NCBI GenBank assembly: GCA_963762115.1
Contig: CAVXJH010000006.1
Location: 521,662-585,661, forward strand
DNA: 64,000 nt
DNA from: Candidatus Babeliales bacterium
GTDB lineage: Bacteria > Babelota > Babeliae > Babelales > JANWKD01
Direction of reading: 5' to 3'
Positions 2,647-12,160 of this stretch are shown piece after piece. The notes beneath the pieces are model-generated. The model had not been told where the DNA came from and did not search any database. It worked only from the letters and a program-made list of their open reading frames with translations. The first letter of the stretch is position 1. Each line of letters opens with the position of its first letter. Both the position numbers and the translations under genes were made by a program.

Positions 2647-3360
2647 TTATTGCAATGTGCAGCCGCGATCATGCCAACCGAGTTTTTTTGCAGAATAAGT
2701 TTCTGTATCTTTCGCGCCATGATCATAGAGAATTGTTACTATTTGATCATGGTCATTTTCCTGCGCCCACTGCAAGGGGGTTTTATTGCGAGAGCGCATA
2801 TCTATATTTGCGCCACGATCAAGGAGAAATGCTGTAAGATCAGATTGTTCTGTAGTTGATCTAATTGTGTGTATGAGTGGAGTAATGTTTTTGATTAGTC
2901 TTGTGGTTCCTCTTGCATTAATATTAGCACCTAACGATAAAAGAGCGGTAATACACATTTTTTTATCATGAAGAAATTGGTTTGTGTATCGTGGTAGGTG
3001 GATTAAGGCATCATTAATATTATTATGGGCATCATGGGTGATTATCCAGCACAAATTTTGAAGATCATCTGGATTATTATAAAAATACTCTTTTATAGCT
3101 TGAGGAACGCAGAGATCAAAGGCTTGGTGAAAAGCGTTTTCTTCAAAGGTTTGATGGTGATGAGCTTGATGTAATGCTTTTAATGGCTCTTTAATGTCAG
3201 AAGGAATAAATTCCAATAAGGTTATGTTAACATTATTTTTTGCTGCAGCTACAAAGCAGGTTGTAAATAGACTTTTTGGTTGAAAGAGATCATCATTGCC
3301 GGCGTTTAAAATGGTACAAAAAATTAAATTGAATAAAAAGAATAGTTTAATGTTTTGCAT
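2647..3360 (-). CDS. Secreted ankyrin-repeat protein with SOCS/BC-box-like motif and C-terminal CaaX (CTLQ)
   Basis: LLSLGANINA, TPLIH, LLDRGANID, TPLQWA ankyrin motifs; PKSLFTTCFVAA..IPSDIKEPL; ends GCTLQ. Confidence 0.8.
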   Translation of the reverse strand: MQNIKLFFLFNLIFCTILNAGNDDLFQPKSLFTTCFVAAAKNNVNITLLEFIPSDIKEPLKALHQAHHHQTFEENAFHQAFDLCVPQAIKEYFYNNPDDLQNLCWIITHDAHNNINDALIHLPRYTNQFLHDKKMCITALLSLGANINARGTTRLIKNITPLIHTIRSTTEQSDLTAFLLDRGANIDMRSRNKTPLQWAQENDHDQIVTILYDHGAKDTETYSAKKLGWHDRGCTLQ

Positions 3361-3388
3361 TAGGAATTATGTCCTGTTTTTTATTATA

Positions 3389-4270
3389 TTATTGCAAGGT
3401 GCAAGCGGCTGCAATGTGATAACGCATTTGTCCTGATTCATGATCTAAATCAAAATCATCTAAATCTTGTTTAACGGGAATGTAAATAGCGCCATGTTCA
3501 CGCAAGAGGTTTGCTATTGTTTGATCTGGCCATTTTTTTGCCAATGTGTAAGCGTTGTAACCGTCAGAAGTCTTTTCGTCAACGCGTGCTTTGTTTTTAA
3601 GAAGTAGTTCTACGCAAGATGTTCGTTTGTATATGGTTGCTGTTATTAACGGTGTCGTAAATCGAATGCGCGTATCAACTGAGCCATAATAATTGATGTT
3701 GGCACCTAAGCTTAATAAAATGGAGTAAAGGACTTTACGCTTTTTATAAGGATTACGACGACCTAATGTAATAAGACCTTTATTGATATTCATATCACAG
3801 TAATTTGCTAAGATAAAATCAAGATCTGCAAAAAGATCTTCATAATCTAAAAGAACATTATTGTCAATCTGGATATCAAATAAGTGTAATTCAGAGCGTC
3901 TTTGTGAGTTTCTTTCATTGATAGTATATACTTTTTCTTGTAATCCTTTTGGAGCGCAGAAATTAAAGGCAATATGAAGATCTTCTTCTAGTGGAAAATT
4001 TTCGTGATGAATATTGTTGAATGCAGATGCAGCTTGCTTTACTTCTTGTGGTAATCTTTCAGATGAGTAATCTTTTTGTGGAAGTGCCGATAAACAAAGT
4101 TGTTTGAGTGTTGGCGTAATAATTAATCGTGAATCTAAGGGTTTATTTTCTTTAGGTGTTTTATTATTAACAACTTTAGGCCCAAAGTCTCCTGGAAATA
4201 CTAATGTTTCCACTAAAAAGCATAGGGTGATTAGGCATATTTTAAATAAAAAAATCTTAGTTGCTTTCAT
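3389..4270 (-). CDS. Secreted ankyrin-repeat protein with SOCS/BC-box-like motif and C-terminal CaaX (CTLQ)
   Basis: Start taken at MKATKIF; LLSLGANIN, TPLITA, LLLKNKARVD; PTLKQLCLSAL..LPQEVKQ; ends ACTLQ; paralogue of 2647..3360. Confidence 0.8.
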   Translation of the reverse strand: MKATKIFLFKICLITLCFLVETLVFPGDFGPKVVNNKTPKENKPLDSRLIITPTLKQLCLSALPQKDYSSERLPQEVKQAASAFNNIHHENFPLEEDLHIAFNFCAPKGLQEKVYTINERNSQRRSELHLFDIQIDNNVLLDYEDLFADLDFILANYCDMNINKGLITLGRRNPYKKRKVLYSILLSLGANINYYGSVDTRIRFTTPLITATIYKRTSCVELLLKNKARVDEKTSDGYNAYTLAKKWPDQTIANLLREHGAIYIPVKQDLDDFDLDHESGQMRYHIAAACTLQ

Positions 4271-6092
4271 GTTCAGATCTTCTATTAACAAGTTCTTTTG
4301 TTTTAAAAATTAATAACGATATTGCCGCAGGTGTCATGCCCGGAATAAGTGTTGCTTGTGCAATGGTGGTTGGTTTATGTTTTATTAATTTTTGTTTTAA
4401 TTCGGTAGAAAGTCCTGGCATGGCGGTGAAATCAAGATTTGCCGGTAAAAGCATTGCCTGATATTGTTTTGTTTTTTCAACTTCTTTTTCTTCTCGTTTG
4501 AGATACGGCTCATAGCGAATGTCAGCCCACACTGTTTGCAGGGTGCGTTCAGGTAAGGTGCCACCAGTAAGCTCAATTAATTTATTTTTATGTTCTTCTT
4601 GATTACCGAGCAATTGTAATATGCTGCAATCATTTTTTCCTAAGCGTAGTTGTGCAATGGTGTCATGTACCAATTGTTTCTCTTGTTTGATTGCTGCATA
4701 GAGCTCTTGATTAATCAAGCCAAGATTATAGCTCATATCGGCAAGTCGTGAAAACACGTTATCTTGCCTTAAGGTGAGTCGACGTTCAGCGCGAGAGGTG
4801 AACATGCGATAAGGTTCGTCAACGCCTAAACTTACTAAATCATCGATCATCACACCGATATATCCTTGCGTGCGATCAAGAATGAATGGAGACTGATTAT
4901 GCGCTTTGAGATGTGCATTAATGCCGGCCATGATTCCTTGACCTGCAGCTTCTTCATAGCCGGTGGTACCATTTATTTGACCAGCCAAAAATAAACCAGG
5001 AACTTTTTTGGTTTCTAGTGAGTGGTGCAATTGATCTGGTGAAACATAATCATATTCAACAGCATAACCAGGACGAACAATAACTGCTTTTTCAAAGCCA
5101 ACAATTGACTGAACATATTGTATTTGTACTTCAAGAGGAAGAGATGTTGAAATGCCATTAGGGTAGATTTCTTCGCTTGAAGCACTTTCAGGTTCAACAA
5201 AAACATGATGAGAAGTTTTTTCTGGAAAACGAGCAATTTTATCTTCAATCGATGGGCAATAACGAGGGCCAACACCTTTAATGTTGCCGCTATACATTGC
5301 CGAAAGATGAAGATTCTTGCGTATTATTTCATGAGTGGTTGCATTGGTGTAAGCAATATAACAATCGCGTGTATTTTTAACTTCATGGGGATGAAATTCA
5401 AATAAGTGATCAAGATTGTCAGCTTGTTGAAATTCTAATTTTGAAAAATCAATACTTGAACGGAGTAAGCGTGGTGGCGTTCCCGTTTTAAGACGACCAA
5501 CTTTTAGACCTAACGATGCAAGAAATTCTGAAAGGTGAGGCACTGCTTCATCGCCTTGGCGACCTGCTGAATAATTATGTTTTCCAATATGAATAAGACC
5601 ATTAAGAAAGGTGCCTGTTGTTAAAATTACACAAGGTGCGGCATATTCCATACCTTCTCGCGTAACAACGCCGCGCACTTCACCTTGTTCATTGGTGAGT
5701 AATCGTTCAACCATGCCGGTCATTAACGTTAAATTTTCAGTTTTTTCTAAAATTTCTTTACTGAGCTTATTATAAGCATGTTTATCAATTTGTAGGCGAA
5801 GTCCTTGGACTGCCGGACCCTTTTTTGTGTTAAGCATGCGCGCTTGTAAATATGTTTGTGTGCACAATTTTGGCATAAGGCCGCCAAGAGCACTAATTTC
5901 AAAAACGATATGCCCTTTGCCAACACCGCCAATGGCAGGGTTGCAGGGCATGTAACCAATTTTATCGAGATTTAAGGTGATCATTAATGTTCTTGAACCC
6001 ATGCGCGCAGCTGCATATGCCGCTTCGATTCCTGCATGGCCACCACCAACGACAATAACATCAAAGTCGTATGAATTTTTTCTTTGTATCAT
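4257..6092 (-). CDS. mnmG: tRNA uridine-5-carboxymethylaminomethyl modification enzyme MnmG (GidA)
   Basis: VVGGGHAGIEAA, CNPAIGG, GPRYCPSIEDK, AGQINGTTGYEEAAGQG, EPYRMFTSRAE. Confidence 0.98.
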   Translation of the reverse strand: MIQRKNSYDFDVIVVGGGHAGIEAAYAAARMGSRTLMITLNLDKIGYMPCNPAIGGVGKGHIVFEISALGGLMPKLCTQTYLQARMLNTKKGPAVQGLRLQIDKHAYNKLSKEILEKTENLTLMTGMVERLLTNEQGEVRGVVTREGMEYAAPCVILTTGTFLNGLIHIGKHNYSAGRQGDEAVPHLSEFLASLGLKVGRLKTGTPPRLLRSSIDFSKLEFQQADNLDHLFEFHPHEVKNTRDCYIAYTNATTHEIIRKNLHLSAMYSGNIKGVGPRYCPSIEDKIARFPEKTSHHVFVEPESASSEEIYPNGISTSLPLEVQIQYVQSIVGFEKAVIVRPGYAVEYDYVSPDQLHHSLETKKVPGLFLAGQINGTTGYEEAAGQGIMAGINAHLKAHNQSPFILDRTQGYIGVMIDDLVSLGVDEPYRMFTSRAERRLTLRQDNVFSRLADMSYNLGLINQELYAAIKQEKQLVHDTIAQLRLGKNDCSILQLLGNQEEHKNKLIELTGGTLPERTLQTVWADIRYEPYLKREEKEVEKTKQYQAMLLPANLDFTAMPGLSTELKQKLIKHKPTTIAQATLIPGMTPAAISLLIFKTKELVNRRSEHESN

Positions 6093-11141: not shown

Positions 11142-11876
11142 TCAACAAAACAATCTTAAATAGTCTTGCTGTGTTTCTTTTACCATCCTGGCAATTAATT
11201 CAATAAAATCTTGATCATTCACATGAGCTTTTTCTAATGCTTTTAAATAATCAGAGCGAAGGATTGGGGGAATAATGGTAATGGTGTAGCCGGCTTGCAA
11301 AAGAGCTAAATTCATCAGTAATCGTGCAACGCGGCCATTGCCATCAACAAAGGGATGTATAAAAACAAATTTTTTATGAACAAGGGCTGCAAATTCAACA
11401 GGATGAACGTTATTGCGAAGCTCATCAAGCTCATTAATGAGATCGTGCATGAGATTCGGAATTTCTTCCGGTGACGGTAATGCAAATTTTGAACCGGTTA
11501 AAAATACTTTTACTTTTCGATAGGTTCCGGCATTGTGCTCATCGATTCTGAAATAAAAGAGATGGTGTAATTTTTTGATAATTTCTTCAGTAATATCTTT
11601 GGTTTGAATGTTTTGTAGTAAGCAATCATAGGCATTAGAATGTCCTACTGCTTCAAAGTGATCTTGTAATCGTTTTCCGCCAATAGTTATTCCTTCTTCT
11701 AGGACAACTTTTGTTTCAGTTTCGGTTAACGAATTGCCTTCAAGAGCATTGCTGGTGTAGGTAAGACCTATGCGATAATATTCTTTTATTTGTTGAAGGG
11801 TGAATGAATCAAATAATTTATTTTGATTATTGATTATATTTTTTAAAGTATCAATTTGATTAAGGAGATTATTCAT
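11142..11876 (-). CDS. Fic-domain protein (AMPylase family) with N-terminal autoinhibitory helix
   Basis: HPFVDGNGRVAR canonical motif; TSNALEGN inhibitory motif; start placed at MNNLLNQ (the ORF-track extension runs into a palindromic repeat). Confidence 0.92.
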   Translation of the reverse strand: MNNLLNQIDTLKNIINNQNKLFDSFTLQQIKEYYRIGLTYTSNALEGNSLTETETKVVLEEGITIGGKRLQDHFEAVGHSNAYDCLLQNIQTKDITEEIIKKLHHLFYFRIDEHNAGTYRKVKVFLTGSKFALPSPEEIPNLMHDLINELDELRNNVHPVEFAALVHKKFVFIHPFVDGNGRVARLLMNLALLQAGYTITIIPPILRSDYLKALEKAHVNDQDFIELIARMVKETQQDYLRLFC

Positions 11877-11957
11877 ATGAAACCATTTTGTGATTAATGA
11901 AATTTGATATAAAGTGTGAATTTGATGCATATAATAAACAATTTTGAAAGTAATTAA

Positions 11958-12160
11958 AATAATCAGAATTGTCATTGCGAGGAGCATTGCGACGCGGCAA
12001 CCCAGCTTATAAAATTCTATTTATTTCTTCATATAAAATGGATTAAAAAATATTTATTAATTCAATAATTTTTAGCTTTTTTAAGGGTTTCATTTATTAG
12101 AACATTATAATCTGGGTTCCCACGGCACAACGTGCCTCGGAATGACAATTCTGATTATAT
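11958..12160. repeat. REP/RPE-like palindromic element (inverted arms GTCATT...CCAG / CTGG...AATGAC)
   Basis: aatcagaattgtcatt at 11961 is the reverse complement of aatgacaattctgatt at 12141; related copies at ~61717 and ~63659. Confidence 0.75.

Follow-up and report, generated by a model that had tools for sequence, protein, structure and literature searches.

What might two leader-bearing ankyrin proteins of a bacterium do when they end in a host-type CaaX box and carry, near the front, a motif that resembles a eukaryotic cullin-adaptor box? The question is raised by a 64,000-nucleotide stretch of Candidatus Babeliales bacterium (assembly GCA_963762115.1, contig CAVXJH010000006.1, positions 521,662 to 585,661 of the forward strand), called the window here, in which two paralogous open reading frames (ORFs) for ankyrin proteins lie on the minus strand directly downstream of mnmG (window 2647-4270). 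In our study, both proteins, named P0002 (gene 1) and P0001 (gene 2), were judged rather likely to be exported to the protist host, farnesylated, and held at a membrane as substrate receptors of Elongin BC-cullin ligases. Papers are cited by their PubMed Central number, and what is attributed to them refers to the portions of their text that were available. The features of the two genes were as follows.

3389..4270, minus strand: gene 1 (P0002), 293 residues, with leader, BC box, Cul2-like box, helical region, ankyrin repeats and CaaX box
4199..4270, minus strand: gene 1 hydrophobic N-terminal leader, Sec-signal-like, about residues 1-24 (sequence and hydrophobicity rule; boundary approximate)
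4082..4111, minus strand: gene 1 BC box TLKQLCLSAL, residues 54-63 (consensus of PMC3355856)
4028..4054, minus strand: gene 1 Cul2-box-like segment LPQEVKQAA, residues 73-81, 9 residues past the BC box
3467..3802, minus strand: gene 1 ankyrin repeat region, about residues 157-268 (fold search and Pfam)
3392..3403, minus strand: gene 1 CaaX box CTLQ (sequence)
2647..3360, minus strand: gene 2 (P0001), 237 residues, with the architecture of gene 1 and a shorter middle
3301..3360, minus strand: gene 2 hydrophobic N-terminal leader, Sec-signal-like, about residues 1-20 (sequence and hydrophobicity rule; boundary approximate)
3244..3273, minus strand: gene 2 BC box SLFTTCFVAA, residues 30-39 (consensus match)
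3181..3207, minus strand: gene 2 Cul2-box-like segment IPSDIKEPL, residues 52-60, 12 residues past the BC box
2710..2955, minus strand: gene 2 ankyrin repeat region, residues 136-217 (Pfam Ank_2, expect value (E) 5.8e-9)
2650..2661, minus strand: gene 2 CaaX box CTLQ (sequence)
4257..6092, minus strand: mnmG (gidA), Pfam GIDA, which fixes the synteny and lies outside the system

The start codon of P0002 was found inside the last codons of mnmG, and a gap of 28 nucleotides separates P0002 from P0001. The initial annotation had described the two as diverged paralogues ending in exactly CTLQ before the stop, with BC-box-like and cullin-box-like motifs ahead of ankyrin repeats, and each of these points was borne out: the proteins shared 29% identity over 196 columns (E 1e-13), both ended in CTLQ, and the quoted motifs were present in P0001 and P0002 as described. 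Each protein contained about three ankyrin repeats. The Pfam Ank_2 match of P0001 was over the cut-off and that of P0002 (E 2.5e-5, 25.2 bits) was under the cut-off of 27.3; the model of P0002 matched ankyrin folds over about residues 157-268, with a best Z of 14.9, a root-mean-square deviation (rmsd) of 1.6 Å and 96 aligned residues. The Sec-type leaders, here and below, were called by a purpose-made hydrophobicity rule and not by a trained predictor.

Apart from the two queries themselves, the 28 proteins listed by the profile search were five full-family homologues and 21 ankyrin proteins of a general kind. Addition of the syntenic orthologue of G001, the single same-genus genome, and of the second gene of L018, a metagenome contig, gave a family of nine members, which were 25-57% identical to P0002. 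The neighbour of the family genes was again mnmG in G001 and L018; it was followed by a P0002 orthologue in both, and L018 carried both family genes in tandem after it, the second being the orthologue of P0001. The scans of genome contigs and of metagenomes gave one locus each. In a profile search of 1.8 billion representatives, long ankyrin proteins dominated the output, and the search was set aside; within the best 150, only the four known members aligned over their full length. The ESM Atlas contained none of the sequences.

The published BC-box consensus is (S,T,P)LxxxC/S/Axxx-hydrophobic, followed by a Cul2 box 8-23 residues later (PMC3355856). All nine members matched this BC-box consensus, and its Leu and Cys (Leu55 and Cys59 of P0002) were invariant in 9/9, being among only 13 invariant columns of the family. 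The strict Cul2-box consensus was found in 6/9 members, 9-12 residues past the BC box, and in 7/9 when Cys was allowed at the first position; both window proteins contained it at the published spacing (gaps of 12 and 9). The Cul5 signature LPxP was found in 0/9.

At the C-terminus, the Cys at position -4 was kept in 8/9 members, with tails that differed in length and sequence and did not align. The ends were CTLQ (three members), CILQ, CTIQ, CVLQ, CSIQ and CTLY, so that X was Q in 7/8. The first 'a' of CTLQ is Thr and not an aliphatic residue, and the final Q is one of the X residues of farnesyltransferase (S, M, A, Q). Prenyltransferase families had no match in the source genome (G000), which is 95% complete. 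The claim of a host-type CaaX box under selection was thus upheld, as was the retention of the -4 Cys among orthologues, and prenylation of P0001 and P0002 by the host appears very probable from these C-termini. The ninth member, P0005, contained a hydrophobic-then-basic tail instead of a CaaX box, like the neighbouring small genes, an end that again resembles a membrane anchor; the tail may be a real swap or an assembly join. The small genes encode leader-bearing proteins with a hydrophobic stretch and an aromatic-basic tip at the end, similar to eukaryotic tail anchors, and were located as follows.

706-1122, 1132-1551 and 1575-1991 of the window, minus strand: three tail-anchor-like small proteins
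4469-6039 of L018: four tail-anchor-like small proteins

The CaaX box was in excess in the source genome as a whole. In a simple ORF set, 45/1359 ORFs had Cys at position -4, while the remaining nine of the last ten positions gave counts of 15-31. The CaaX pattern was found at 26/1359 ends; at 59 control offsets it occurred 2.5 times on average and 11 times at most. A leader was present on 18/26 CaaX ORFs, against 538/1359 overall. Among the 29 ends of the form C-x-[VILFM]-X, X was S in 11, Q in 8, and L or I in none, against an all-ORF background in which S and Q together end 15% and L and I together 14%. S and Q are the X residues of farnesyltransferase and L and I those of geranylgeranyltransferase (PMC13524398), so this skew fits farnesyltransferase. 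The 26 ORFs are spread over contigs C3, C5, C6 and C7, and eight of them end in CIIS. A few of the ends are chance occurrences (a ribosomal-protein-like ORF, a fragment ORF). A further CaaX ORF was found in the window at 60946-61680.

The front part of the two proteins was found to belong to a genome-wide and order-wide family, which the initial annotation had missed. This module, composed of the leader, the BC box and the LPxEL motif, heads 16 proteins in the source genome. The published pattern of BC box and Cul2 box was present behind the leader in 6/533 ORFs, which would include both query genes, against 0.46 in shuffled sequences (maximum 3 of 100), 0/832 in downstream windows and 2/531 in ORFs without a leader. 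A looser pattern, devised after the query sequences were seen, was found behind leaders in 15/533 ORFs, against 2.5 in shuffles (maximum 7). The profile searches for the module covered Babeliales genomes. A first profile of 15 segments (12 from G000, 3 from G001) matched 16 places in G000, 9 in G001, and 14/201 genomes in all, with all 44 matches in stop-free frames. When 22 of the 25 held-out matches outside G000 were inspected, 22/22 were located 17-59 residues from the first Met, and a hydrophobic leader was seen by eye ahead of the module in 21/22. A second profile of 28 segments gave 85 matches, none with a stop, in 32/261 genomes and 7/21 families; among 16 of the 18 new genomes inspected, the best hit was within 70 residues of the start in 14/16 and contained the BC-box pattern in 13.

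The Leu of the BC box was invariant in 28/28 segments and the Pro-containing second box was kept in most, while the spacer between the boxes varied widely. The domains behind the module were ankyrin repeats, WD40-like repeats, or of no recognised type. Module and CaaX box occurred together in 3/16 module proteins of the source genome, two of which are P0001 and P0002, and elsewhere in 4/33 inspected hits with visible ends (G153, G032, G258 and G260). In one profile hit, L203 of G215, a genome with eight matches, the BC module was C-terminal, as a SOCS box usually is.

Whether the module resembles an Elongin-C-binding box was examined with a model of residues 48-97 of P0002, built from a 28-row alignment, which contained two helices (predicted local distance difference test 75.6, predicted template modelling score (pTM) 0.47). 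The first match of Foldseek, among 350,542 chains, was a chain of a KLHDC3-EloB/C entry (E 1.3, prob 0.57, rmsd 1.5 Å, 33 columns). Of the 30 matches listed, 14 came from entries of KLHDC3, FEM1B, FEM1C, VHL, SOCS1 or SOCS2 complexes, and among the 12 with rmsd up to 3.3 Å, 11 came from such entries and one had an uninformative title; these chain identities were taken from entry title and length, the aligned ranges being absent from the output. VIA-align, run over 48,161 chains, placed APPBP2 residues 8-62 at rank 1 (Z 4.1, rmsd 2.6, 48 aligned), ZYG11B residues 10-78 at rank 3 (Z 3.7, rmsd 3.4, 49 aligned), SOCS1 residues 168-211 at rank 8 and ASB9 residues 254-294 at rank 28. We take the matched ranges of these four proteins to be their boxes. 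An Elongin-C-binding box was not demonstrably present by sequence libraries, and by the shape of the model the answer is weakly yes. From its sequence, the box would be classed as VHL-box-like and not as a SOCS box, because LPxP and a Pfam hit were both absent. The label of SOCS box in the initial annotation was therefore not sustained, a eukaryotic ASB control (P0029) having scored 3.2e-7 on the same Pfam SOCS_box profile, and its proposal of a Cul5 ligase gives way to the Cul2 consensus that the second box fits. Binding of Elongin C by P0001 and P0002 is, taken together, predicted as probable.

The source genome has 1.53 Mb and about 34% G+C, and encodes two secretins as well as ATP/ADP translocases. 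Every cultured member of the Babelota is a parasite of protists (PMC12172432). In the relative Chromulinavorax, a signal peptide was reported on 44% of genes and on 78% of ankyrin genes, and replication takes place in the host cytoplasm, with the mitochondrion wrapped around the bacterium (PMC6561590); the vacuolar anchoring suggested by the initial annotation found no evidence here. Three BC-module genes, two of them with Pfam ankyrin repeats, adjoin the two secretin genes at G000:C6:198832-211191. From the observed motifs and their conservation, enrichment, position and distribution, we infer every biochemical step of the following mechanism. The leader would take the protein through the Sec pathway, and a type II-like secretin or vesicles might then hand it on, which is the weakest step. 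Host farnesyltransferase would modify the Cys at -4, as the motif and its conservation suggest, and would tether the protein to a cytosol-facing membrane. The BC-box helix would dock on Elongin C and the LPxE helix would contact a cullin, most likely a Cul2-like one, as the consensus, its conservation and a weak likeness of fold indicate. The ankyrin repeats would then select the host substrate for ubiquitination.

Several results weigh against this reading. The type III (FHIPEP), VirB4 and type VI sheath families were without a match in the source genome, the type IV search being for the VirB4 family (type IVA) only; no injection system was found with these three marker families. Samples of 330-400 kb from five other Babeliales genomes contained CaaX ends in 2/303, 0/359, 2/323, 2/368 and 3/338 ORFs, with 0.4-0.7 expected; this weak or absent excess makes the excess lineage-specific, and an order-wide one was rejected on these samples. 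Pfam SOCS_box (PF07525) and VHL had no match in P0001 or P0002 (E up to 1 for SOCS_box), nor in 12 segments searched in isolation (E up to 5), and 0/201 Babeliales genomes had a match over the SOCS_box cut-off. The comparison of the profile with PDB sequences gave no significant BC-box protein among its six rows. The profile-profile comparison with an ASB SOCS box had a probability of 0.2, though BC box was aligned to BC box, and three SOCS-like controls gave local profile scores close to zero. The pTM of the 50-residue model also counts here, as do the structure scores, which were at noise level: no Foldseek E was under 0.001, and the top Z values of VIA-align were tied with those of many helix-turn-helix proteins. 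The Cul2-box pattern failed in 2/9 family members, and it equals the poxvirus F-box consensus (PMC6232478).

It is this last point, the shared pattern of hydrophobic-P-xx-hydrophobic-xxx-hydrophobic, that leads to an alternative in which the front module binds Skp1 or ubiquitin. LPxEL would then be the start of a degenerate F-box or a motif like a ubiquitin-binding motif (UBM), and the proteins would be AnkB-like adaptors of Skp1-Cul1-F-box ligases, or ubiquitin binders, with a CaaX anchor. The best match among PDB sequences was a Rev1 chain (E 0.023), to the LPxEL half only, a REV1 UBM2 chain was placed at rank 18 by VIA-align, and nine Skp1_POZ-like matches were found in the source genome, one with an LxxxCxxxV stretch after the POZ-like domain. 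The most conserved feature of the module is, however, the upstream [ST]LxxxC helix, with its Leu in 28/28 segments, and F-boxes and UBMs are not known to have this helix. No Pfam F-box was found in P0001 or P0002 at E up to 1, a search that degenerate F-boxes can escape, and no entry titled F-box or Skp1 was present among the 30 and 50 matches listed in the two fold searches, an absence that still leaves room for the family. We regard this alternative as unlikely. A similarly small probability was given to the possibility that Elongin C is bound and no Cul2 ligase is formed, the proteins partnering a different cullin, on the model of yeast Rad7-Elc1, which forms an E3 ligase with Cul3 (PMC4832922), or serving as decoys that keep Elongin BC at a membrane. 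Conservation is lower in the cullin-box half than in the BC box, the spacer is variable, and the N-terminus of Rad7 aligned to the BC-box half in the PDB sequence search (E 3.2); yet the Pro-containing second box of most segments, together with varied repeat domains, is what is expected of substrate receptors, and decoys would have no need of varied cargo domains.

Sec signals end in the periplasm. The proteins might accordingly be periplasmic or surface-bound and have no action on host machinery, the N-terminal helices being a structural cap or a bacterial export or chaperone signal. The missing injection-system markers, the constant position of the module directly behind the leader, a possible site of a secretion signal, and the absence of a significant eukaryotic match in sequence searches would all suit such a role. 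On the other side, the module was found in only 16 of about 533 leader-bearing ORFs, the S/Q-skewed CaaX excess would be useless without a host prenyltransferase, and both fold searches favour Elongin-BC receptors at the residues of the box; a role confined to the bacterium seems quite improbable. The reading of P0001 and P0002 as likely host-farnesylated, predicted Elongin BC-cullin receptors was kept, and it was compared with the known adaptors.

Legionella pneumophila AnkB (LegAU13/Lpg2144) is similar in architecture, with an N-terminal cullin-adaptor motif, about three ankyrin repeats and a CaaX box, which is farnesylated by the host in AnkB (PMC2916131, PMC7830128). It differs in its F-box, which binds Skp1-Cul1, and in its delivery to the vacuole by Dot/Icm, whereas P0001 and P0002 contain a BC box, a Cul2-like box and a Sec-type leader. 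The orthopoxvirus ANK/BC proteins, such as ectromelia 010, share the ankyrin repeats and a Cul2-recruiting BC box (PMC6232478); they are viral, their BC box is C-terminal and without a cullin box, and no leader or CaaX box is described in the portion of the source available, whereas in P0001 and P0002 the BC box is N-terminal and is followed by a Pro-containing box. The VHL-box receptors of cullin-RING ligase 2 (VHL, ZYG11B, APPBP2, KLHDC3, FEM1B/C) have a BC box followed by a Cul2 box at the spacing given above (PMC3355856) and occupied the top rows of both fold searches at weak scores, APPBP2 and ZYG11B being matched at their N-terminal residues; they differ in having no significant sequence match and no bacterial leader, and binding has been shown for them but only predicted for P0001 and P0002. 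The ASB proteins (cullin-RING ligase 5) combine ankyrin repeats with a BC box as well, but their SOCS box is C-terminal, contains the LPxP Cul5 box and scores on Pfam, whereas the box of P0001 and P0002 is N-terminal, lacks LPxP and has no score. Expanded families that join a cullin-adaptor motif to varied repeat domains are also described in other protist parasites, namely the F-box and BTB-box proteins of Parachlamydiaceae (PMC4209131) and the F-box, RING and deubiquitinase proteins of Babela massiliensis (PMC4378268). The main texts of both papers are without SOCS, that of PMC4209131 also without Elongin, BC-box and VHL, and that of PMC4378268 without 'prenyl'. P0001 and P0002 belong to none of the AnkB, poxvirus ANK/BC and SOCS-box families; by analogy, they would work like an AnkB that has a VHL-type box in place of its F-box, so that the Legionella precedent named in the initial annotation holds as a way of working, or like poxvirus ANK/BC proteins with the box moved to the front.

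Some further genes were observed that touch on cullin adaptors. Leader-bearing Skp1_POZ-like proteins of the source genome were found at G000:C3:33816-34391 (ending in CTTS) and G000:C3:380015-381307 (ending in CAIS, with WD40 repeats), and these proteins may be self-contained cullin adaptors. At G000:C6:63690-65339, beside a BC-module gene, a leader is followed by an F-box-like stretch, seen by eye and without a Pfam match, and by ankyrin repeats. Motif scans of viral contigs for Elongin C gave none in the first scan and one in the second; on a giant-virus metagenome contig (L183), an Elongin C gene was found at 548-1048 (E 8.6e-45 to solved Elongin C), and the ORFs on either side of it, at 2-505 and 1180-1752, have ends that are SOCS-box-like by eye. 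The window also contained a Fic-domain protein at 11142-11987 on the minus strand (Pfam Fic, E 1.2e-22). Scans for promoters and terminators were at chance level (20 against 24, and 4 against 4). Among sequencing runs, none of RNA was listed as containing the region. Short contigs of one soil sequencing run matched parts of the region without differences, none spanning it, and this run may be the source.

No published bacterial BC-box or SOCS-box effector and no CaaX protein of Babelota was found in the mainly non-subscription literature searched, supplements aside. The term SOCS is absent from the main texts of PMC4776705, PMC6561590 and PMC4378268, and SOCS, Elongin and BC-box are absent from those of PMC7830128, PMC11696984, PMC8003559 and PMC4209131, as far as these were available. 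The supplementary gene tables published with the Babelota papers may be relevant to this claim. A paper on Listeria InlC (PMC6918085) reportedly contains SOCS, Elongin or BC-box terms.

Mimicry of F-box and BTB cullin adaptors is known from bacteria, and that of BC boxes from viruses. The front-module proteins are likely a new variant of cullin-adaptor mimicry in bacteria. We lean slightly towards the view that Babeliales possess Sec-exported VHL-box effectors as a whole class, numbering up to about 16 per genome, which would hijack host Elongin BC-cullin ligases and, within the scope of our searches, would be without precedent in bacteria; a recurring subset would add a host farnesyl anchor, or swap it for a tail anchor, and so aim the ligase at a membrane. 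If this is true, a missing class of cullin adaptors would be filled for bacteria. Because Pfam does not recognise the module, effectors of this kind may be going unnoticed elsewhere. Many orphan secreted proteins would receive a first testable function, the effectors of Babelota being so far without an assigned mechanism, and prenylation and Elongin C binding, which would take place in the host cytosol only, would provide a simple reporter for the delivery of Sec-signal proteins by Babelota without a recognised injection system.

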